NCBI GenBank assembly: GCA_963809895.1
Contig: CAWELD010000010.1
Location: 320,001 to 384,000 of the forward strand
DNA from: an uncultured Gemmatimonadales bacterium
GTDB lineage: Bacteria > Gemmatimonadota > Gemmatimonadetes > Longimicrobiales > Gaopeijiaceae
Length of the DNA: 64,000 nt
Direction of reading: 5' to 3'
Part shown: one piece after another, positions 31,675-42,340 of the stretch
Layout: every line of letters begins with the position of its first letter
Numbering within the stretch: position 1 is the first letter of the stretch
Position numbers and translations under genes: made by a program
Notes under the pieces: model-generated
The model's database searches: none
What the model saw: the letters and a program-made list of their open reading frames with translations, nothing else
Told to the model about the DNA's origin: nothing

Positions 31675-34059
31675 TCAACACTCGAAGATGGTTTGCAGGG
31701 CCGTCACCAGGTCCGCACGCTCGAATGGCTTGTCGAGGATCGCGCGAACGCCGAGCGCGGCGAACTTCTCCCTGGTCACCTCACCCATCAGCCCGCTCAC
31801 GACGATGACGCCGACGTCGGGCAACTGGCTGCGAAGGATCCGCACGAAGGACATGCCATCCAACTCGGGCATGTGGAGGTCGGTAATCACCGCGCGCAAG
31901 TCCGCCCCATGCTCCGCCACCTCCTGCAAAGCGCTGGTGCCGTCCCAAGCGGTCCGCACGGTGAAGTTCATCCTCGTCAGCACCTTGCGGAGGATGTCGC
32001 GTACGGAGGGTTCGTCATCCACCACGAGGATGACCTCGCCGTTCCCTCGACACGTGGGCTCGGTCGTCGGCACCGACGCAGTCGTCGCAGCGCCCCCATC
32101 ATGCACCGGCAGGTAGACCCGGAAGGTGGAGCCCCGCCCGGGGACGGAATACACCCGGATGAAGCCGCCGTGGCCCTTGACGATGCCGAGTGCGGTGGCG
32201 AGGCCGAGTCCGGTCCCTTTGTCCGCAGCCTTGGTGGTGAAGAACGGATCGAAGATGCGATCCAGAATCTTCGGCGGAATGCCGGTGCCGGTGTCGCTGA
32301 CCTGCAAGACGAGATACGGGCCGGGCGTGACGTCGAACGCGTCAGCGTCCACACCGGCGTCGAAGTCCTTCCGTTTGACCTCAACAGATAGCGTACCGCC
32401 ATCCGGCATGGCGTCGCGGCCGTTGAGCAACAAGTTGAGCAACACCTGGTGCAGTTGGGTGACGTCGCCCAGGATGGCAGGAAGTTCCTTTGGGCAATCG
32501 ACGCGGAGTTCGATACTCTTTGGGAACGTGCTCCGGGCCATGCGCTCCACCTCGATGAGCAGCGGCCCGACCCTGACCGGCAGCCGGTCGCCTTCGGCGC
32601 CCCGGGCGAAGGTGAGGAGCTGTGTCACCAGGTCTGCGCCGCGCTTGGCCCCGCCTTCGATGAGGTCGAGATCGGCCATCGCGCGGTCTGGCAACTCCGA
32701 CCGCAACAGTTCGGCGGCCATGAGCACTGGGGCGAGCGCGTTGTTGAGGTCATGCGCGATTCCACCGGCCAGCGTGCCGATGCTCTCCATCCGCTGGGCG
32801 CGCCGCAATTGAGACTCCAGCCGCTGCTGTTCGGTGACATCCCGCTTGACGGCAACGAAGCTGACCGTCTTCCCTGCAGCGTCACGCATTGGCGAGATGG
32901 TGACCTCTTCGTCGTAGAGCGTGCCGTCCTTCCGCTTGTTGGTGAGGCGCCCGCGCCACACCCTGCCGTCGGTCAGCACGGTCCACATCCGCCGGTAGAA
33001 TTCCGCGTCATGCATACCGCTCTGGAGGAAGCGTGGATTCTGGCCCACGGCCTCCTCGCGACTGTAACCGCTGGTCGTTTCAAACGCCGGATTGACGTCC
33101 TGGATGATCCCGTTGGCGTCGGTGATCAGGATGGACTCGGCGGCCTGCTGGACAGCCATCGCCAGCCGGGCTGCGGACGCTTCCGCCCGCTTGAGTGGGG
33201 TGATGTCGAGATAGGTGCCGAGAACGCCGGAGATTTCCCCCGTGGCATCGCGGAGCGGGACTTTGCTCGTCAGTAGCGTGATGGTCGCCCCATCGGGCGT
33301 CGTCTGCGGCTCTTCGACGAGGAGACTCGCCTGGCCGCTCTCGATCACCTTGCGATCATCCTTGCGATAACGACTCGCCTGGTCGCGCCAGGCCAGTTGA
33401 TGGTCCGTCTTTCCGATGACGTCCCGCGGATCGGCAAGACCCGCATCGTGGGCAAAGAGAGCATTGCAGCCCAAATACACCAGGTCCCGGTCTTTCCAGA
33501 AGACGCGCGCCGGAAGCGCGTTGATGATCTCGTTGGTGAGGCGCTGGGACGCCTCGAGAGCCGCCTTCGCGCGTGCGGCCGCGGTCATGTCGCGGATGTT
33601 ACACTGGATCACCCGCCGTGCGTCCACCAGATAGACGTTGCTGACGAACTCGACCTCGATCCGTCGTCCGTCAGAGGTCTCCAGCGCCTTGTCGTCGTAG
33701 CGGACGTACTCGTGCTCCGACAATTCGAGAAAGTTGTCCCGATTTGCCACGATGTCTCGGAGGAAGCCCAGATCCCACACGTGCTTGTCGCACATTTCCG
33801 CGTGCGAATAGCCCAGCAGCTCCGTCAGAAATGGATTCACGTCCGTGATCATCCCGGTCTCGGCATCGAGGATCAGGATGCCGTCCTTGGCGGACTCGAA
33901 GAGGCGGCGATAGCGCAGTTCTGAAGCGCGGAGCGCCTCGTCATCCCCTGCGGGGCCCTGGCGCCCCGCGGCAGGTGGCTCGTCGGCGGAGGCGAGGCTC
34001 GCCCGGAGTCTCGCCAGGAGCTCCAGCCGCTCGGCGAGCGAGAGGTCGGAGATATTCAC
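31675..34059 (-). CDS. Hybrid sensor kinase, 3 PAS + HisKA + HATPase + REC
   Basis: GIAHDLNN, DTGTG, FFTTK, GTGLGL, LVVDDE, TDLHMP. Confidence 0.92.
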   Translation of the reverse strand: MNISDLSLAERLELLARLRASLASADEPPAAGRQGPAGDDEALRASELRYRRLFESAKDGILILDAETGMITDVNPFLTELLGYSHAEMCDKHVWDLGFLRDIVANRDNFLELSEHEYVRYDDKALETSDGRRIEVEFVSNVYLVDARRVIQCNIRDMTAAARAKAALEASQRLTNEIINALPARVFWKDRDLVYLGCNALFAHDAGLADPRDVIGKTDHQLAWRDQASRYRKDDRKVIESGQASLLVEEPQTTPDGATITLLTSKVPLRDATGEISGVLGTYLDITPLKRAEASAARLAMAVQQAAESILITDANGIIQDVNPAFETTSGYSREEAVGQNPRFLQSGMHDAEFYRRMWTVLTDGRVWRGRLTNKRKDGTLYDEEVTISPMRDAAGKTVSFVAVKRDVTEQQRLESQLRRAQRMESIGTLAGGIAHDLNNALAPVLMAAELLRSELPDRAMADLDLIEGGAKRGADLVTQLLTFARGAEGDRLPVRVGPLLIEVERMARSTFPKSIELRVDCPKELPAILGDVTQLHQVLLNLLLNGRDAMPDGGTLSVEVKRKDFDAGVDADAFDVTPGPYLVLQVSDTGTGIPPKILDRIFDPFFTTKAADKGTGLGLATALGIVKGHGGFIRVYSVPGRGSTFRVYLPVHDGGAATTASVPTTEPTCRGNGEVILVVDDEPSVRDILRKVLTRMNFTVRTAWDGTSALQEVAEHGADLRAVITDLHMPELDGMSFVRILRSQLPDVGVIVVSGLMGEVTREKFAALGVRAILDKPFERADLVTALQTIFEC

Positions 34060-34463
34060 ACTCGTTCCTGCGCTCGGTGCGCGTGGGGAAGACGGCACGT
34101 CAGGACCCGTCGCCAGCACACGGCGCGGGCATCGGACTTGATCGTGCTTGGCCGACGCTCGGTTCGTGGCCGCACGATACGACAGGCGCACGGCCAAACG
34201 GTCTCGCGCGACCAGCTCCGCTTCCTCACCATGCACCCCTCATCTGTGATGGGTTCGACAACACCCGCGCCGCCACGCATCGAACGCGGGACGGATTCAC
34301 CGAAGGGTAAAGGTCCTGTTGTGAAGTCCAGGGCAAGAGGGGATCGGCTCCAATCGCTCAAAGGGGTAAAGAGCGACGTGGCACACTTGAAGGGTATCTG
34401 TCTGCCGTGGGTAGCGAAAGCCTCATCAGCCATGAGATAGCTGGCTTCTTGAGGACTCAGTGA

Positions 34464-35200
34464 GCTTCGCCGAATCCGGGCCGGTTCTCATCCGGCCGTC
34501 CCTCCTTCGGCTCCCGACAACGACGAAGGCTCCTCGACCGATGTGGTCGAGGAGCCTCAGTCGGGACGGCCGGATGGAGCTGCGGTGGCCGCTGGCGCGG
34601 CCATCCTCGCTCGCCTCGCGACGGGGGGCGGGTGGGCCTGACGGGGTGGCTAATTGGTCGCTCGGCTCGAACCGGCGATCCGTCTTCGGCTTCGCCGAAT
34701 CCGGGCCGGTTCGAACCGGGGGAGAATGAAGAGAGGCCCGCGGCAGTCGCCGCGGGCCTCGTAATCGGGACGGCCGGATGGAGCTGCGGTGGCCGCTGGC
34801 GCGGCCATCCTCGCTCGCCTCGCGACGGGGGGCGGGTGGGCCTGACGGAGTAGTGAGTCGGTCGCTCGGCTCGAACCGGCTACCCGTCTTCGGCTTCGCC
34901 GAATCCGGGCCGGTTCTCATCCGGCCGTCCCTCCTTCGGCTCCCGACAACGACGAAGGCTCCTCGACCGATGTGGTCGAGGAGCCTCAGTCGGGACGGCC
35001 GGATGGAGCTGCGGTGGCCGCTAGCGCGGCCATCCTCGCTCGCCTCGCGACGGGGGGCGGGTGGGCCTGACGGGGTGGCTAATTGGTCGCTCGGCTCGAA
35101 CCGGCGATCCGTCTTCGGCTTCGCCGAATCCGGGCCGGTTCGAACCGGCGCGGCTCGAGAACGAAGAAGGCCCGCGGCGAGTCGCCGCGGAGCCTCGTAA
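34464..35200 (-). repeat. tRNA-linked repeat array (about 3.5 units of 204-225 bp) downstream of tRNA-Pro
   Basis: TCGGGACGGCCGGAT at 34561, 34765, 34990 and in the tRNA at 35201; 34464-34719 nearly identical to 34893-35148. Confidence 0.9.
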
Positions 35201-35274
35201 TCGGGACGGCCGGATTCGAACCGGCGACCCCCTGAACCCCATTCAGGTGCGCTACCGGGCTGCGCCACGTCCCG
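35201..35274 (-). tRNA. tRNA-Pro(GGG)
   Basis: Cloverleaf: CGGGACG/CGTCCCG acceptor, CCTGA-ATGGGGT-TCAGG anticodon arm. Confidence 0.95.
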
Positions 35275-35285
35275 AGACGGGCAGA

Positions 35286-35314
35286 AGTATAACCGGCGCC
35301 CATGGCGCCCTCAA
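35286..35314 (-). promoter_or_regulatory. Sigma70-type promoter of tRNA-Pro
   Basis: TTGAGG-N17-TATACT, 11 nt upstream of the tRNA. Confidence 0.65.
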
Positions 35315-36027
35315 CCCTGGGCGAGGGCCGGCGTCAGTGCGGTGTCAGGGGCGTCGAGACGGTACCCTACGCCCCGGACGGTCGTGACGAGCTCCGCCTC
35401 TGGCTGCTTCTCGTCGAGCTTGCGTCTCAGGCGGTGAACCGTAGCATCCAGTACTGCCTCGGTTCCCTTGTCCTGACCCCAGATGTCGCGCAGGAGCACT
35501 TCTCGCGGTACCACCTCGCCCTTGCCTTCCATCAACCGCACCAGCAGCTCGAATTCCCTTCCGCTGAGCGTCAGGGGGTCCTCACCGTCGAGCACCTGTC
35601 GGCTGGTCAGGTCGATGGTGAGCCCTCCGATCATGACCCGGTGTCTCAGCGGCCTGTTCGGGGCTGGAGTCCCGCTGATCTGTCGCAACAGGACCTGACG
35701 ACGCATCAGAATGGCACGGGCGGAGTGTGGAGGACACACGAGGTCGTCGGCACCGGCGGCGAGCGCTTCGTCGGTGCACTCGGGGTCTGCGCAGGATGAC
35801 AGGAGAAGGCGGACTGCACGGGATCCTCCCTTCTCGAGGGAGCTCAGGAATTCAAGGGAATCTCCCGCCGTCGGGTCCGCGCCCACCACGATGGTGTCGG
35901 GGCGAATACGGTCGGCGTCCTCCATCGCTCGAGCGAAGGTGGTGGCGGTCGCAACCGCGTGACCCGACTCCCGGCAGGCTTCGGCGAGGCTCGCCGCGTT
36001 GCGGCCGATGCCAGCGAGGAGGATCAT
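35311..36027 (-). CDS. Atypical OmpR-family response regulator (degenerate receiver + wHTH)
   Basis: LSGREFELL, VHRLRRKL, TVRGVGYRL; receiver lacks acidic pocket, phospho-Asp and Lys. Confidence 0.8.
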   Translation of the reverse strand: MILLAGIGRNAASLAEACRESGHAVATATTFARAMEDADRIRPDTIVVGADPTAGDSLEFLSSLEKGGSRAVRLLLSSCADPECTDEALAAGADDLVCPPHSARAILMRRQVLLRQISGTPAPNRPLRHRVMIGGLTIDLTSRQVLDGEDPLTLSGREFELLVRLMEGKGEVVPREVLLRDIWGQDKGTEAVLDATVHRLRRKLDEKQPEAELVTTVRGVGYRLDAPDTALTPALAQG

Positions 36028-36305
36028 CCCTCGCTCGACGGCGGGCCGGCCGTCGCCCCGAATCGGACGCTCGCCGCCGGGATGGGCCGCTGTTGCATGC
36101 TCGAGCTGGTTGATATCACGTCTGATCAACATCTCAAATCCTCTCAGCAAGAGGTGCGCTGTGCACCTCTGATATCTTCTTCATAGGCGTCGCCGCAGGG
36201 GTGACGTTGATCCTACAGCACCGAGGACCCACAGGGTCCGGGAAGTGTTGTCGGGCCGCGGCAATCCTCCGGGGAACCCACCCGAACAAGCGGGTGTTCG
36301 GAGGG

Positions 36306-36335
36306 TTGACACCCCCCTGGCCGAACGGGTATACT
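36306..36335 (+). promoter_or_regulatory. Sigma70 promoter of the tRNA array
   Basis: TTGACA-N18-TATACT followed by GC-rich discriminator TGGGGCCC. Confidence 0.8.
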
Positions 36336-36346
36336 TGGGGCCCTGT

Positions 36347-36420
<74 letters not shown>

Positions 36421-36494
36421 TTTTGGAGCGCCGCCGGGTCTGGGCGGCGTTTCCCACGTTTGAGAGTCACGCCGAGGCGCCGGAGAGATCGACG

Positions 36495-36617
36495 ATGCCG
36501 TTTTCCCTGAGTCCGCGAACGACCGAGCGTGCGCGCACGGACGCGTCGCAGGCCCGTGGGTTCACGGTGGCGGACACCTGGTCTAGCCAGCATCGGGTGG
36601 GGGTTGGCGAGCGGTAG
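36495..36617 (+). CDS. Putative leader peptide, 40 aa (MPFSLSPRTTERARTDASQARGFTVADTWSSQHRVGVGER)
   Basis: GGAGAG 7 nt before ATG; 3' end overlaps antiterminator arm. Confidence 0.6.
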   Translation: MPFSLSPRTTERARTDASQARGFTVADTWSSQHRVGVGER

Positions 36618-36653
36618 CATTGCGACCGTCTTCGCTTGAAGAGCCCCGCCCGA
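36593..36653 (+). promoter_or_regulatory. Putative antiterminator hairpin
   Basis: TCGGGTGGGG (36593-602) pairs with CCCCGCCCGA (36644-653); inner GGCGAG/TTCGCT and CGGT/ACCG stems. Confidence 0.65.
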
Positions 36654-36679
36654 GCCCGAGTGGCCGGGCGGTTTTTTTT
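36646..36679 (+). terminator. Intrinsic terminator inside the tRNA array
   Basis: CCGCCCG-A-GCC-CGAGT-GGC-CGGGCGG followed by T8. Confidence 0.85.
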
Positions 36680-36681
36680 CC

Positions 36682-36754
36682 GGCCAGGTAGCTCAGTTGG
36701 TAGAGCACACGACTGAAAATCGTGGTGTCGGCGGTTCGATTCCGTCCCTGGCCA
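36682..36754 (+). tRNA. tRNA-Phe(GAA)
   Basis: Cloverleaf; CACGA-CTGAAAA-TCGTG. Confidence 0.95.
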
Positions 36755-36792
36755 TGAAAAAGCAGGACGACACCGCCCCGAGCGGAGTCCAG

Positions 36793-36865
36793 AGGTCCGT
36801 AGCTCAATTGGTAGAGCACCGGTCTCCAAAACCGGCGGTTGGGGGTTCGAGTCCCTCCGGGCCTG
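36793..36865 (+). tRNA. tRNA-Trp(CCA)
   Basis: CCGGT-CTCCAAA-ACCGG. Confidence 0.95.
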
Positions 36866-36907
36866 TGATACGGCCGGAGTGTGGCCTGCCCCTGGGGGTG
36901 GGTAGAG

Positions 36908-36979
36908 GCCCCCATCGTCTAACGGCTAGGACACCACTCTTTCAAGGTGGCGGTCGGGGTTCGATTCCCCGTGGGGGCA
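36908..36979 (+). tRNA. tRNA-Glu(TTC)
   Basis: CCACT-CTTTCAA-GGTGG. Confidence 0.95.
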
Positions 36980-37008
36980 TTGATCAACGTTGGAATTGCA
37001 GGGAGTTT

Positions 37009-37082
37009 GGGGCTGTAGCTCAGTCGGTTAGAGTGCCGGTCTGTCACACCGGAGGCCGCGGGTTCGAGTCCCGTCAGCCCCG
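37009..37082 (+). tRNA. tRNA-Asp(GTC)
   Basis: CCGGT-CTGTCAC-ACCGG. Confidence 0.95.
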
Positions 37083-37165
37083 CTGGACGTTGTTTGAAAT
37101 CTGGTGCGAGCGGTCGATCCTTTCGGGGATCCCCTCGTGCTTTCGGGTCATCGGAATGAAAGGCT

Positions 37166-37238
<73 letters not shown>

Positions 37239-37278
37239 CTGGTCCGCGGGTGCGCCGTGAGGCGTGCCCCGGTGCCGG

Positions 37279-37362
37279 GCTCGGGTGGCGGAATTGGTAG
37301 ACGCGCAGGATTCAGGATCCTGTGGGGGCAACCCCGTGAGGGTTCGAGTCCCTCCCCGAGCA
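37279..37362 (+). tRNA. tRNA-Leu(CAG)
   Basis: CAGGA-TTCAGGA-TCCTG; long variable arm. Confidence 0.95.
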
Positions 37363-37429
37363 CTGCTTCGGTTCGCTTGAGGCAGCGTCGGTCACCCTCG
37401 CCAGGTGCCGACAAACCGATAGGAAGGTC

Positions 37430-37513
37430 GCCCACGTGCTGGAATTGGTAGACAGGCTGGTTTGAGGGACCAGTGCCGGAAACGGCGTACAGGTTCGAGT
37501 CCTGTCGTGGGCA
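37430..37513 (+). tRNA. tRNA-Leu(GAG)
   Basis: CTGGT-TTGAGGG-ACCAG; long variable arm. Confidence 0.95.
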
Positions 37514-37527
37514 CTCCTGGCGGGCGC

Positions 37528-37601
37528 GCGCCCGTAGCTCAATTGGATAGAGCGTTTGACTACGGATCAAAAGGTTGGGGGTTCGAGTCCTCCCGGGCGC
37601 A
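37528..37601 (+). tRNA. tRNA-Arg(ACG)
   Basis: TTTGA-CTACGGA-TCAAA. Confidence 0.95.
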
Positions 37602-37629
37602 TCTCGTGTTGAAGGGCACAAGGGGATTC

Positions 37630-37703
37630 GGGCGCGTAGCTCAGTTGGTTAGAGCGCTACGTTGACATCGTAGAGGTCAGAGGTTCGAGTCCTCTCGCGC
37701 CCA
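37630..37703 (+). tRNA. tRNA-Val(GAC)
   Basis: CTACG-TTGACAT-CGTAG. Confidence 0.95.
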
Positions 37704-37713
37704 TGCGAAGGCT

Positions 37714-37786
<73 letters not shown>

Positions 37787-37796
37787 CTCCAGACCT

Positions 37797-37869
37797 GCCA
37801 CCATAGCTCAGCTGGTAGAGCACGTCACTCGTAATGACGGGGTCGTCGGTTCGAGTCCGACTGGTGGCT
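37797..37869 (+). tRNA. tRNA-Thr(CGT)
   Basis: CGTCA-CTCGTAA-TGACG. Confidence 0.95.
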
Positions 37870-37903
37870 CTGGCCGGTCGGGCGAAGCCCGGCTCTGATG
37901 TGG

Positions 37904-37976
37904 TGCCCCGTGGTGTAATTGGCAACACGCCGGATTCTGGCTCCGGAGAGTCTAGGTTCGAGCCCTAGCGGGGCAA
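37904..37976 (+). tRNA. tRNA-Gln(CTG)
   Basis: CCGGA-TTCTGGC-TCCGG; T1-A72. Confidence 0.95.
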
Positions 37977-38015
37977 TCTTCACCGCCGACGTCGGATGGA
38001 TCGGCGGAATCCTGG

Positions 38016-38101
38016 GGAGGGATGGCCGAGTGGCTTAAGGCGGCGCCCTGCTAAGGCGTTGGGCCGAAAGGCCCGCGTGGGTTCGAATCCCACTCCCTCC
38101 G
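38016..38101 (+). tRNA. tRNA-Ser(GCT)
   Basis: GCGCC-CTGCTAA-GGCGT; long variable arm. Confidence 0.95.
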
Positions 38102-38146
38102 TTCGATTCCTTCTTCGGGATCCCGTCTCGAGGTTGGATGCTTCCT

Positions 38147-38230
38147 GGACGGGTGGCCGAGCGGCTTAAGGCGCACGATTGGAAATCGTGTGGGCGAAAG
38201 CCCACGTGGGTTCGAATCCCACCCCGTCCG
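38147..38230 (+). tRNA. tRNA-Ser(GGA)
   Basis: CACGA-TTGGAAA-TCGTG; long variable arm. Confidence 0.95.
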
Positions 38231-38285
38231 TTGCTGATCGAGAAAGCGGGAGTGAGAGTGGGCTTCTCACCCACGGAAGGCTGTT

Positions 38286-38359
38286 CGGGGCGTGGCTCAG
38301 TCCGGTAGAGCGCTGCGTTCGGGTCGCAGAGGTCCCCGGTTCGAATCCGGGCGCCCCGA
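38286..38359 (+). tRNA. tRNA-Pro(CGG)
   Basis: CTGCG-TTCGGGT-CGCAG. Confidence 0.95.
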
Positions 38360-38378
38360 CTTTGGTTGGTTCAGGCAG

Positions 38379-38464
38379 GGAGGGGTGCCGGAGATGGTCG
38401 AACGGGCCCGCCTCGAAAGCGGTGCGTGCGAAAGCACACGGGGGTTCGAATCCCTCCCCCTCCG
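38379..38464 (+). tRNA. tRNA-Ser(CGA)
   Basis: CCGC-CTCGAAA-GCGG; long variable arm. Confidence 0.93.
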
Positions 38465-38510
38465 TTGCGGGTAGCGTGCTTTTTCATTGCGATGATCCGA
38501 CACGACGTCC

Positions 38511-38547
38511 AACGCCCCCTGCCGCATTCCGGTAGGGGGCGTTCTTG
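38511..38547 (+). terminator. Terminator hairpin after the tRNA array (possibly bidirectional)
   Basis: AACGCCCCCTGCCG...CGGTAGGGGGCGTT then CTTGTGTT. Confidence 0.7.
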
Positions 38548-38572
38548 TGTTGGGGGAGCCTGGAGGTCGGCT

Positions 38573-38959
38573 CTACGAGTCGTCTTGGGCGCGCCGGGCG
38601 AGCGCTCGCTGCACGGCGGCCCGAACCCCGTCGACCGTGAGGGGCTTCTGCAGCGTCTCCACGGCGCCGATCATACCCGCGTCCTTGAGAACGAAGTCCT
38701 TGTCGGCGAAGCCACCGCCGGAGATGGCGATGATGGGGACGTCGGGATTGAGCTCCTGATACGTGATCAGGAACTCGATTCCGTCCATCTCGGGCATGTA
38801 CACGTCGGTGATCACCGCGTCCACCGTGTACTGGCGCCCCAGGTCCAGAGCCGCTCGCCCGTCGGCGGCTTCCAGGACCTCGTGACCGTCGAGCTGCAGG
38901 ATCTTGGTGAGAGACCTGCGGACGGCGGGTTCGTCGTCGATTACCAGGATCGTGGCCAT
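38573..38959 (-). CDS. Single-domain response regulator
   Basis: LVIDDE, ITDVYMPEMDG, QKP. Confidence 0.9.
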   Translation of the reverse strand: MATILVIDDEPAVRRSLTKILQLDGHEVLEAADGRAALDLGRQYTVDAVITDVYMPEMDGIEFLITYQELNPDVPIIAISGGGFADKDFVLKDAGMIGAVETLQKPLTVDGVRAAVQRALARRAQDDS

Positions 38960-39089
38960 GAAGTCGCGTGGGGCCGAGTCGAGTGCGCCTGCGGGAGAGC
39001 GACCCCTGAAGTATACTGCAAGGCTTCGATCAGGACAGGTTCACGACGCTTTCATCGATCTTCGCCCTCTTGATTCCGCGGGAGGAATC

Positions 39090-40229
39090 ATGCCGGACCC
39101 GGAACGCGAGACATCCCCCAAGTCGGCGGATACCGCCGCGCGAATCCGCGAGCTGGAGTCGCGCCTCGCGAGCGCGCGCCGGATGGAAGTGCTGGGTCGG
39201 CTGGTCGGAGGCGTGGCGCACGACTTCAACAACGTGCTGTCCGTGATCACGACGCTCAGCGAGTTGCTGATCCGCTTCGCGCCGGACGACGATCCCGATC
39301 TCGAGGATCTGGAGGAGATTCGCGCCGCCGCCCTCCGCGGATCCGAGTTGACCCGCCAGCTCCTGGCCTTTGCCAGGGCGGACGTGGGAGAGCCGGTGGC
39401 GGTGGATCTCAACGAGCGCGTACGCCTGGCGGAGAAGCTCTTCCGAAAGCTGCTTCCGGAAGACGTGACTCTCACGGTGGACGTTGCGGACGACGTTCCC
39501 CGGGTGCGAGCCGACCCCGTGGAAGTGGATCAGGTGATTCTCAACCTCGCGGCGTATGGGCGTGAATGCCTGCGAGAGGGTGGGACCATCCGCCTTTCCA
39601 CGACCACGAGCCCCGAAGGCGAGGCTGTGATCGAGGTCCTCCTGGAAGGGCGCGCGGGGGCTCCCGTGGACATGCGCCCGGATACGCCGGCATCGGCGCG
39701 GGGCGGCGTCGTCGAGCCGGGGCTGGAACCCATCGAGGAGACGCTACTCCTGCGCGGGGGTGAGCTGCGCGTGGAGAATCGGACGATCTCGGTGCTCCTC
39801 CAGCCTGCCGAGGAGCCAGCGGGAGGCGAGGAAGCCGTGGTCGCCGGGAACGGAGAGGCGATCCTCGTGGTCGAGGATCAGGCCACGGTGGCGGAGGGTG
39901 TCGTCCGGACCCTGGAGGCGCTCGGGTACAACGCCCGGGCGGCGGGTACCGGCGAAGAAGCTCTCGCCGCCATGCGCGAACGGGACGCGCTCTCGTTGGT
40001 GGTGTGCGACGTGGTGCTGGAGGACTGCTGGGGAGCGGAGCTCGAGCGCCGGGCGGCGGCATCCGACGGCGCCGGCATGCCGTTCCTCTTCTTTTCGGGC
40101 CACGAGCAGCATCCGGCTTTGGCCGAGTTGCGCGCAGCGGGCCGCCCGGTGCTCCGCAAGCCCTTCACCCAGCAGGTCCTGGCCGCCGCCGTGGCGGACG
40201 CCCTGCGAGGGACTCGCGCCGAGGGCTGA
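39090..40229 (+). CDS. Hybrid histidine kinase-like protein with degenerate ATPase domain and REC
   Basis: GVAHDFNN, DQVILNL; no DxG, F or GxGLG boxes; C-terminal receiver. Confidence 0.75.
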   Translation: MPDPERETSPKSADTAARIRELESRLASARRMEVLGRLVGGVAHDFNNVLSVITTLSELLIRFAPDDDPDLEDLEEIRAAALRGSELTRQLLAFARADVGEPVAVDLNERVRLAEKLFRKLLPEDVTLTVDVADDVPRVRADPVEVDQVILNLAAYGRECLREGGTIRLSTTTSPEGEAVIEVLLEGRAGAPVDMRPDTPASARGGVVEPGLEPIEETLLLRGGELRVENRTISVLLQPAEEPAGGEEAVVAGNGEAILVVEDQATVAEGVVRTLEALGYNARAAGTGEEALAAMRERDALSLVVCDVVLEDCWGAELERRAAASDGAGMPFLFFSGHEQHPALAELRAAGRPVLRKPFTQQVLAAAVADALRGTRAEG

Positions 40230-40231
40230 GC

Positions 40232-42340
40232 TCAACCCTCCGTCACGGTGGTCTCCGTGAGGCTACCCAACCAGTCGCGGATGGCAGCCTGGGACCGCAT
40301 GGGGGGCGCACCGCCGTTGGCGATGGCGTTCGTCCCGCCCTCGTCGATGATGCGGGCCTTTCGGGTATCGGCCAGCTCGAGCTCGAGTCCGTGAATGACC
40401 TGTGAGCGGAGCGTGGGATCCAGAACCGGAAACGCGACCTCGATCCTGCGGCTGAGATTGCGGTGCATCCAGTCCGCGGAGCTCAGGTAGACCGCGGGAT
40501 CCCCACCGCCGGCGAAAACGTAGATCCTCCCGTGTTCGAGATAGCGGTCCACGATGGAGCGCAATTCGACGTGCTCGCTCCATCCCGGGACGCCGGGGAT
40601 CATTCTGCAGATGCCGCGCACGACCCCTCGGATCCGAACGCCGGCTCGAGCCGCCTCGTAGAGCCGGGTGATCACGGCCTCGTCTTCCAGAGCGTTCAGC
40701 TTGAAGGTGATGCCTGCGGGCAGGCCCCTCCGGGCCTGCTCCGTCTCTTGGTCGATCATCTCGTAGAGCCGGTCCCGCAGGTCGAACGGTGCCACCATCA
40801 GAGAGCGGAATAGCGGGACGATCTCGTGGGATCCAGCGAGGATCTGAAAGACCCTTTCCAGGTCTTCGGTGATGTCCGCGCGCGAGGTCAAGAGTGCGTA
40901 GTCCGTGTAGAAGCGGGCGGTCTCCTCGTTGAAGTTCCCGGTGCCCAGGTAGGCCTGCCGCCGTCGCACGCCGCCCTTTTCGCGGATGACGAGCGCGAGC
41001 TTGGCGTGCACCTTGAGATCGGGCATCGAGTACAGGGTCACGATACCCGCCCGCTCGAGCCGCTCGGCCCAGGCCAGGTTCGTCGCCTCGTCGAAGCGCG
41101 CCTTCACCTCCACGAACACCCGGACCAGCTTTCCCCTTTCCGCGGCGTCCAGCAGGGCGCGCAGCACCGAGGACTCCCTCGAGACCCGGTATACGGTGAG
41201 CCAGATCTCCGTCACGTCGGGGTCCTGGGCCGCCTCGGTCAGGAAGCGGACCACCTGATCGTAGCTCTGATACGGAAAGTGCAGGAGCTGGTCCTCGCGC
41301 TCGACGACGTCACTCACGGAGGGCGACCGGGTCAGCACGGGATGCGGCACGGGAGGCCACGGCTCGAACTCCTCGCCGCGAACACCACACCGGGGAAAGG
41401 TGCGCAGATCGTGGAGATTGTGATACCGGCCGCCGGCCACCAGATCCTCGGGCTCCAGCCCCAGGACTTCGCGCAGGCGCTCCATGACCACGATCGGTGT
41501 GGCCGGATCGTAGAGGAAGCGAGTGGGCGCGCCGGTCTCGCGCTTGCGGAGGCTCTTGCGAATCGCCTCGACGACGTCGCCGGCGAACTCGTCCTCCAGG
41601 TACAGCTCCGCGTCGCGTGACAGCTTGACTGCCCACGACCCGGCGACCTGACGATCCGGGAACAGCTCGGACAGATGGAGGCGCAGCACGTCGTCCAGGA
41701 ACATCACGTGGTGGCGGCCCTGGTGAGGTCCCAGAACGACGAAGCGGTCCAGGGGCGGTGAAGGCACGGGCACCAGGGCGAGCTCGGGCTGCGACGGAGC
41801 CACGGGCACCGCGCCGTCGGGGTGCAGCTCGACGACGAGGTAGACGGTGCGTCCGTCGAGGAACGGTGGGTCTTCGTCCGGAGTCGGGAGCGCCGGCACG
41901 GCGAGGGGTCGGATCCTGTCTTCGAACAGCTCGCGGAGCGTCTCCCGGTCCCCGTCATCGAGCTCGTCTCCCGCGGTCAGATGGATGCCGCGGGCTTCGA
42001 GGCCCGGGAGGATGCGATCCTGGAAGATGTCGCGGAACTGCGCCTGCTGCCGGTCCACTTCGCCCCGGATCGCGCTCAGGATCTCGATGGGATCCACGGA
42101 GAGGCGCCGGACCCGCTTCTTCTTGAGTCGGAGCAGGCTTCGCAGCGAAGCCACCCGCACCCGGAAGAACTCGTCCAGGTTGGACGAGAAGATGCCCAGG
42201 AAGGCCAAGCGCTCGAAGAGGGGGACGCTGGGGTCGGCGGCCTCCTGCAGGACCCTGGCGTTGAACGCCAGCCAGCTCAATTCGCGGTCGGCGAGCGGCG
42301 GTCGGTCCGTCCCGACTTCTTCTTCAGTCCCGTCGCTCAT
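40232..42340 (-). CDS. ppk1: Polyphosphate kinase 1
   Basis: [52 protein letters not shown]. Confidence 0.97.

Follow-up and report, generated by a model that had tools for sequence, protein, structure and literature searches.

A probable leader-peptide transcription attenuator between an initiator tRNA gene and sixteen elongator tRNA genes in the Gaopeijiaceae

What allows transcription to pass from an initiator transfer RNA (tRNA) gene into an array of sixteen elongator tRNA genes when a predicted intrinsic terminator stands between them? This question is raised by a locus in the stretch of DNA analysed here, 64,000 nucleotides (nt) of a Gaopeijiaceae genome (positions 320001-384000 of contig C10 of genome G000; hereafter the window), where the initiator gene (tRNA-fMet) and the first gene of the array, tRNA-Phe, are separated by a spacer of 260 nt that contains a short open reading frame (ORF). 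The first-pass annotation of the window had proposed that translation of this leader ORF controls read-through into the array, in the geometry of ribosome-mediated attenuation of the trp, his and pheST type. The comparison with relatives described below supports that geometry, with an apparently coding ORF and with a terminator and an antiterminator that are conserved and co-vary. We consider that the locus is probably a classical four-region leader-peptide transcription attenuator inside a stable-RNA operon, between tRNA-fMet and the sixteen elongator tRNA genes, and we infer the actual termination, the translation and the sensed signal from sequence.

The promoter, the tRNA-fMet gene, the GGAGAG sequence, the 40-codon ORF and the T8 terminator named in the annotation were all located, on the + strand. 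Transcription would start at a sigma-70-like site, TTGACA-18-TATACT, at 36306-36335 (11/12 positions matched), which is the sole promoter-like site of this strand within 35000-39500. The first gene of the transcription unit, tRNA-Met(CAT) at 36346-36421 (Rfam tRNA, 67.1 bits), is one of three CAT tRNAs in the genome; its sequence shows three G-C pairs in the stem of the anticodon and a mismatch at 1:72, which we take to be the marks of an initiator tRNA. The Shine-Dalgarno (SD) sequence GGAGAG (36482-36487) is located 7 nt upstream of the ATG at 36495 that opens the leader ORF (36495-36617), which comprises 40 codons followed by TAG at 36615-36617 (MPFSLSPRTTERARTDASQARGFTVADTWSSQHRVGVGER). 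The core codons GAC ACC TGG TCT AGC at 36573-36587, encoding aspartate, threonine, tryptophan and two serines (D-T-W-S-S), are the proposed sensing site.

Four pairing regions were distinguished in the spacer, also on the + strand. Region 1 (36585-36592) is the 5' arm of a putative anti-antiterminator, and region 2 (36593-36602; TCGGGTGGGG, in relatives CGGGCGGGAG), which encodes R-A-G, could pair with region 1 or with region 3. Region 3 (36644-36656) could in turn pair with region 2 as an antiterminator or with region 4 as a terminator. Region 4 (GGCCGGGCGG) together with the T8 tract occupies 36662-36679 and ends 2 nt before tRNA-Phe, which begins at 36682; the predicted terminator hairpin CCGCCCGAGCC/GGCCGGGCGG spans 36646-36671 and is followed by T8 at 36672-36679. 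The alternative pairing from which the annotation had derived its antiterminator, 36593-36602 (TCGGGTGGGG) with 36644-36653 (CCCCGCCCGA), was recovered with 10/10 positions paired, one of them G-U, and it is used by the minimum free energy (MFE) fold of the spacer.

Taken by itself, the G000 sequence proves little: the genome has 69.4% G+C, the leader forms the last part of an open frame of 138 codons that extends across the tRNA gene, and the other strand has long frames too. In the comparison with relatives, however, more than chance is evident: the SD, the ORF with its stop, and three alternative helices show both conservation and co-variation. An alignment of the spacer across related genomes had been suggested in the annotation as a check, and the ORF, the SD and the co-varying stems were all found to be conserved in it.

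Relatives were collected by anchoring on the pair of tRNA-Phe and tRNA-Trp genes, which is assembled in 201/314 genomes of the family of the window, and with a covariance model. This procedure replaced a BLAST search with the 122-nt 3' part, which had found only 49/314 family genomes and had missed known cases. The 110 loci examined consist of 30 collected beforehand and the best 80 of a score-ranked list of Phe-Trp pairs; tRNA-fMet directly precedes tRNA-Phe in 106 of them, and 94 of these belong to the family of the window. An SD-preceded leader ORF of 17-55 codons is present in 75 of the 94 family spacers, with the consensus end [W/F]-x3-D-T-W-S-[S/P]-x3-R-A-G-x3-R-stop. A promoter-like site was found in 0/75 of these spacers, compared to 43/75 relatives with such a site, under the same criteria, within 60 nt upstream of tRNA-fMet, where the TTGACA block can also be seen. 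Since the spacers hold no promoter-like site, the array must be reached by read-through, and the annotation had likewise seen no separate promoter for the sixteen tRNAs.

The 75 ORFs were picked with a regular expression that requires the W and allows [DEP] and [TSAP] before it and [SAFR] after it. Because this expression fixes the W and limits its neighbours, the counts of the core residues (D 73/75, T 66/75, W 75/75 and S 73/75) are partly by construction, whereas the codon-position pattern is unaffected. In the D and T codons, positions 1 and 2 have an entropy of 0 or close to it, compared to 1.1 bits at position 3, with GAT in 43 and GAC in 30 leaders, and with ACG in 49, ACC in 15 and ACA in 2. 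The stop stands at one alignment position, at which TAG (55), TAA (13) and TGA (7) are exchanged, and one subfamily of leaders shows an indel of exactly one codon (TCT, 3 nt). Moreover, a start codon whose SD duplex reaches -6 kcal/mol or lower was found in 65/75 cases for the true frame, compared to 46/150 for the other two frames. This third-position pattern, the exchange of stops, the indel of one codon and an SD enrichment confined to the true frame all indicate that the leader ORF is translated, and these comparisons support selection on it as a coding sequence. Distances are conserved as well: the W codon to the end of the stop measures 39 or 42 nt in 66/75 leaders, the stop to tRNA-Phe measures 60-67 nt in 59/75, and a second W or F stands at -6 from the core W in 64/75 (W 58, F 6). 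As a separate observation, TAG or TAA terminates 68/75 leaders compared to 25.5% of the ORFs of the genome (TGA in 74.5%), and the final residue is Arg in 56/75 compared to 17%; this bias could reflect an RNA constraint in the antiterminator loop or a release-factor preference.

The helices were analysed in an alignment of 73 leaders, from which L082 and L087 had been dropped for extra 3' sequence. The terminator 3:4 has 88.7% of its cells paired, compared to at most 55% when the arms are slid against each other, and six of its eight pairs change on both sides; the antiterminator 2:3 has 83.0% (at most 54% slid). A third helix, absent from the account given in the annotation, was found in relatives directly after the W codon: this anti-antiterminator 1:2 is often closed by a tetraloop and has 83.1% of its cells paired (at most 45% slid). 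Additionally, in an alignment-free swap test, arms taken from the same genome gave lower duplex energies than arms combined across genomes, with -18.47 vs -16.87 kcal/mol for 2:3 (0/2000 permutations), -15.14 vs -14.14 kcal/mol for 3:4 (0/2000) and -10.05 vs -9.65 kcal/mol for 1:2 (19/2000), and three control pairings showed no own-arm advantage. At locus L072, a G-C to A-U change is found in regions 1, 2, 3 and 4 together. Region 2 consists of the R-A-G codons, the leader stop is located within the distal part of the long 2:3 hairpin, and the mean local energy of the terminator hairpin is -20.5 kcal/mol (72 leaders). As judged from these alignments, the predicted helices 1:2, 2:3 and 3:4 are mutually exclusive, conserved and co-varying.

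The effect of the position of the ribosome was modelled by folding each of the 73 leaders (MFE) as far as the T-tract, with a ribosome footprint of 28 nt excluded from pairing. When no footprint is placed, the terminator is predicted to form in 59% of the leaders. It is lowest, at 41-45%, with the A site on the T codon (W-1) or on the W codon, it reaches at least 90% from W+3 onward, and it amounts to 96% with the ribosome at the stop. In G000, the predicted terminator remains at 0 up to W+1 and is at least 0.8 from W+2. The predicted switch point thus falls just after the D-T-W codons, and these appear to be the last site at which a ribosome that pauses would cover region 1 but not region 2, which is the arrangement of the trp attenuator. 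The modelled outcomes agree with the suggestion in the annotation that a ribosome at the stop brings about termination and that a stall upstream allows read-through.

The element would operate as follows. One promoter would fire, and tRNA-fMet would always be made; the nascent RNA would then expose the SD and the short ORF. A ribosome that has arrived at the last codons or at the stop would open up the long 2:3 hairpin together with region 2; formation of the 3:4 terminator would follow, and transcription would end 2 nt before tRNA-Phe. A ribosome lingering with D-T-W(-S) in its decoding site would cover region 1 and leave region 2 free, the 2:3 antiterminator would form, and the polymerase would continue into the array. 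A leader that is not translated would, in most relatives, adopt 1:2 and 3:4 and terminate. By such a device this soil-type bacterium probably adjusts its tRNA output to the reading speed of its ribosomes.

What the leader could sense depends on the genes behind it. The array (36682-38464, + strand) contains, in this order, tRNAs for Phe, Trp, Glu, Asp, Ala, Leu, Leu, Arg, Val, Ala, Thr, Gln, Ser, Ser, Pro and Ser. ARAGORN predicts 48 tRNA genes in the genome, and each of the sixteen array tRNAs is the only gene for its anticodon; the array represents 16 of about 46 tRNA species, one third, and its anticodons together read about 59% of codons (2275 long ORFs). The array includes the only tRNA-Trp, -Phe and -Asp of the genome and is the housekeeping set, not a spare one. 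Outside the window, ARAGORN additionally reports a tRNA-SeC at C3:1127790-1127886 and, at G000:C10:815017-815109 and G000:C3:1924928-1925022, two unusual tRNA-like genes whose anticodon loops are irregular ('gcat' and 'ga').

The W, D and both S core codons are read by array tRNAs. The codons next to W are often rare and read by wobble: TCT is used in 34/75 leaders compared to 3.3% of Ser codons genome-wide, and GAT in 43/75 compared to 21% of Asp codons; rare codons are a known device of leader peptides, as in the leu leader. Core codons of the types read by the array amount to 90% (610/675) compared to a background of 59%. Given the relatedness of the sequences and a chance probability of roughly 0.01-0.07 with 5-9 consensus positions, this is only a hint that the leader is written in codons of the array. 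As the sensed signal, we tentatively prefer the supply of charged tRNAs for the D-T-W(-S) codons. If the signal is charged tRNA, the regulation would form a feedback loop on tRNA supply, since the array itself encodes tRNAs for Trp, Asp and Ser. It is conceivable, and we advance this with more reserve, that the array regulates itself via its own products: decoding speed at a sentinel D-T-W-S stretch, which includes the rarest amino acid and rare wobble codons and is read by single-copy array tRNAs, would decide on read-through from tRNA-fMet into the array. This would be a cis-acting homeostat of elongator-tRNA supply versus initiator tRNA and ribosomes in a free-living bacterium, and the unusually conserved D-x-W peptide may fine-tune it through a new nascent-chain pause.

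The element is tied to this one locus. In leader-bearing genomes it was found once per genome and always at the fMet-Phe site; a profile of 44 leaders gave one match per genome, at that locus, in 31/69 sampled family genomes, and a peptide profile matches the leader site of G000 at E = 3.3e-12 as the sole match in that genome. The gene order fMet-Phe-Trp-Glu-Asp-Ala... is retained through the taxonomic order, and in another family of the class the Phe and Trp tRNA genes lie at separate places in 41/41 genomes searched (G739 being unpublished). Diverged leader-like ORFs are found in a further family, where 13/30 loci have spacers of 228-351 nt with a mostly SD-preceded ORF of 33-52 codons, followed by a hairpin and a T-run; ORFs with AD[S/A/T]W..AGG-stop occur in this family, and D-x-W is present in 6 of the 13 loci, two of the six (L295 and L308) being from unpublished genomes.

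Weaker second matches of the covariance model were observed off the array at G237:C249:14022-14118 (E = 2.7e-4) and G184:C3:58865-59006 (E = 7.7e-4), which could be other terminators or attenuators with the same arms. Elsewhere in the phylum, beyond the family, the peptide profile gave only marginal matches (E 6.5e-4 to 9e-3); most of them fall within long open frames, and they were taken as chance. Among the leaderless loci of the family, L073, L084, L089, L094, L096 and L111 carry a different long hairpin ending ..CCGGTCGGTTTTTGTCGG.. between tRNA-fMet and tRNA-Phe, and no D-T-W ORF.

Several observations weigh against the attenuator proposed here, and a first group concerns the evidence from G000 and from the helices. 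The 110 loci are a non-random sample. The covariation score, although above that of all 500 shuffles for each of 1:2, 2:3 and 3:4, can be inflated by relatedness. The spacer of G000 folds with z = -0.92, and 32/200 shuffles fold at least as well; its 1:2 helix is weak, with 4/6 pairs, and its untranslated state is predicted to be antiterminated. Across the leaders, the modelled stall at W cuts terminator formation only to 41-45% of sequences. A second group concerns the signal: the leader has only one or two Trp codons and no tandem run, the tRNA that reads the Thr codon ACC, used in G000 and in 15/75 leaders, is not encoded in the array, and the peptide is more conserved than codon sensing alone requires.

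A third group comes from loci where the leader is missing. Six of the 94 family loci (L013, L014, L071, L095, L103 and L109) have long spacers without a canonical ORF, and 13/94 have short spacers of 59-155 nt, which indicates that the leader is dispensable in relatives. In the largest genus, the covariance model matches in 1/20 genomes, at E = 0.007 and away from the fMet-Phe locus, and the fMet-Phe spacers have another hairpin and T-run and no such ORF. In a sister family, spacers of 55-56 nt consist of only a hairpin and a T-run (L016, L017, L019, L024, and L018 from the unpublished genome G025). Since the spacers of the sister family have no leader, read-through of the fMet-Phe hairpin must be possible by other means.

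The alternative that survives best retains the RNA switch and changes the sensor: the nascent peptide [W/F]xxxD-x-W-S..RAG would itself arrest the ribosome in the exit tunnel, alone or with a small molecule or factor. We regard this as unlikely, or at best doubtful. It would account for residue-level conservation over about 15-20 positions with free third positions and with the exchange of W and F at -6, for the persistence of D-x-W in the further family whose leaders otherwise differ, and for the bias in the last residue and stop codon described above. The W stands 11-13 codons before the stop, and the key Trp residues of TnaC and SecM are found at a similar distance. The conservation of R-A-G, however, can stem from the RNA, because its codons are region 2 itself, and an arrest at the stop would favour termination, so that an inducing signal is hard to picture. 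Moreover, the leaders show no similarity to a known arrest peptide family (0 NCBIfam matches for four leaders at E up to 10, known arrest peptide families included), and an Arg codon replaces the Trp codon in two recognisable leaders, L103 (..VDTRSS..) and L309 (..DVDSRPG..). The codon-supply and the peptide-arrest readings are inseparable by sequence.

We consider it very improbable that there is no regulation at all, in which case the ratio of tRNA-fMet to elongator tRNAs would be set by the hairpin and T-run, as a fixed, leaky terminator or as a signal for processing, and the ORF would encode a free-standing micropeptide or be translated incidentally. Relatives with spacers of 55-66 nt do keep a hairpin and a U-rich tail between tRNA-fMet and tRNA-Phe without an ORF, and in E. 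coli metY, which heads metY-nusA-infB, is followed by terminators t1 and t2 and RNase III sites (PMC6511841). Such a fixed signal would leave unexplained that region 2 is part of the ORF and co-varies with regions 1 and 3 alike, that the stop stands at a fixed distance inside the antiterminator hairpin, and that the predicted switch point falls at conserved codons. The least probable explanation is a protein- or ligand-binding (riboswitch-like) RNA or a small RNA with an incidental ORF in GC-rich DNA, which would fit the open frames common here (the 138-codon frame and those of the other strand) and the nucleotide-level conservation of TGGTCTAGC in many leaders, but is disfavoured by the third-position pattern, in-frame stop exchange, codon-sized indel and true-frame SD enrichment of a translated ORF and by the lack of an Rfam match.

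Other features of the locus are located around the proposed attenuator. Directly 3' of tRNA-fMet, hairpin 1 (36425-36453, + strand) has a perfect stem of 11 base pairs, GGAGCGCCGCC/GGCGGCGUUUCC, with compensatory variants in relatives, e.g. GGCACCGCC/GGCGGTGCC. The first 50 nt of the spacer have a median fold energy of -23.8 kcal/mol in the 94 family loci compared to -15.4 in shuffled sequences; a threshold of -10 or lower is non-discriminating, being passed by 93/94 loci and also by 450/470 shuffles, and only the medians differ. A role as the terminator of tRNA-fMet was rejected as unlikely because the U's are paired within the stem, and hairpin 1 may act in processing or as an exonuclease barrier. 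At the other end, a terminator-like hairpin at 38511-38543 (+ strand; 14 pairs, 10 of them G-C) closes the array.

A tRNA-Pro(GGG) gene at 35200-35275 (- strand) is divergent from the array, with its own promoter-like site at 35314-35286 and a terminator-like hairpin at 35191-35171, and it is also found near the array in many relatives. The flanks (31675-36150 and 38904-42340) encode an 853-residue PAS hybrid histidine kinase, an OmpR-type regulator and a 441-residue HisKA/receiver protein, and a polyphosphate kinase gene also adjoins the array. A sub-threshold Rfam Leu_leader match at 34730-34789 (- strand; 24 bits compared to a gathering score of 50, E = 0.1) is probably due to chance.

Sequencing runs were also compared. 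In none of them is the leader contained (best share 0.24), and the matches in the 4 runs compared are almost only to tRNAs of other organisms. One DNA contig is identical to 36417-36574. One contig of a relative, from an RNA library, spans 36643-36828, from the terminator to tRNA-Trp; DNA carry-over is possible, and no conclusion was drawn from it.

The spacer and its peptide matched no known family: cmscan of 34500-39500 against Rfam, at E up to 1, returned nothing within 36422-36681, with Trp_leader, His_leader, Leu_leader, T-box and riboswitch families included, and Pfam gave 0 families for the leader peptide of G000. The annotation had known of no described peptide attenuator gating a tRNA array, and no account of leader-peptide attenuation of tRNA genes was found in a full-text literature search whose coverage leaves out most subscription journals; a search for leader peptides in Gemmatimonadetes turned up nothing relevant.

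The control of bacterial tRNA genes is generally placed at the promoter, by growth-rate and stringent control, and attenuation by leader peptides is typical of amino-acid operons and of a small number of synthetase genes. A feedback of tRNA supply on tRNA synthesis has long been discussed, to our knowledge without a cis-acting mechanism. If the proposal made here is true, the decoding speed of ribosomes could set tRNA output and the ratio of initiator to elongator tRNAs, in a direct feedback from tRNA supply to tRNA synthesis that gates one third of the tRNA species. The element is small (about 190 nt), natural variants exist, including genera that lost the leader, and the conserved D-T-W-S micro-ORFs form a new family on which ribosome pausing can be studied.

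Leader-peptide attenuation has its model in trpL of the E. coli trp operon. The spacer resembles it in its short ORF preceded by an SD and in its four regions, whose helices 1:2, 2:3 and 3:4 exclude one another. As in trpL, Trp codon(s) stand where a stalled ribosome would cover region 1, a stop stands where a terminating ribosome would block region 2, and an intrinsic terminator, here predicted, directly precedes the regulated genes. The spacer differs in that the targets are tRNAs and not biosynthetic enzymes, and that the leader is located downstream of a tRNA gene in the same transcript. Whereas trpL has a tandem pair of Trp codons, one or two separated ones stand here in a D-T-W-S context; moreover, region 2 lies inside the ORF, upstream of the stop, and there is no sequence or Rfam relationship. 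The attenuator of pheST-himA in E. coli, with its pheM leader, is similar in that a component of the translation machinery is controlled by the decoding of cognate codons; there the target is a synthetase mRNA, and because the products here are the tRNAs themselves, the sensed molecule and the regulated product can coincide.

TnaC and SecM share with the D-T-W-S leader a short conserved peptide whose critical Trp stands some twelve residues from the point of stalling or the stop, and which is linked to the fate of a downstream transcript; there is no sequence similarity, TnaC acts via Rho whereas an intrinsic terminator is predicted here, and arrest is here only a candidate. The closest published arrangement that we found is the E. 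coli metY-nusA-infB operon (PMC6511841), in which an initiator tRNA gene comes first and is followed by terminators and RNase III sites. In both cases transcription must pass terminators or hairpin processing sites after the initiator tRNA gene to reach translation genes; in metY-nusA-infB there is no leader peptide, read-through is tied to NusA, and the downstream genes are protein-coding. The mechanism proposed for the present locus is classical, and what is new is its target, housekeeping tRNA genes behind tRNA-fMet, together with the D-T-W-S leader family.

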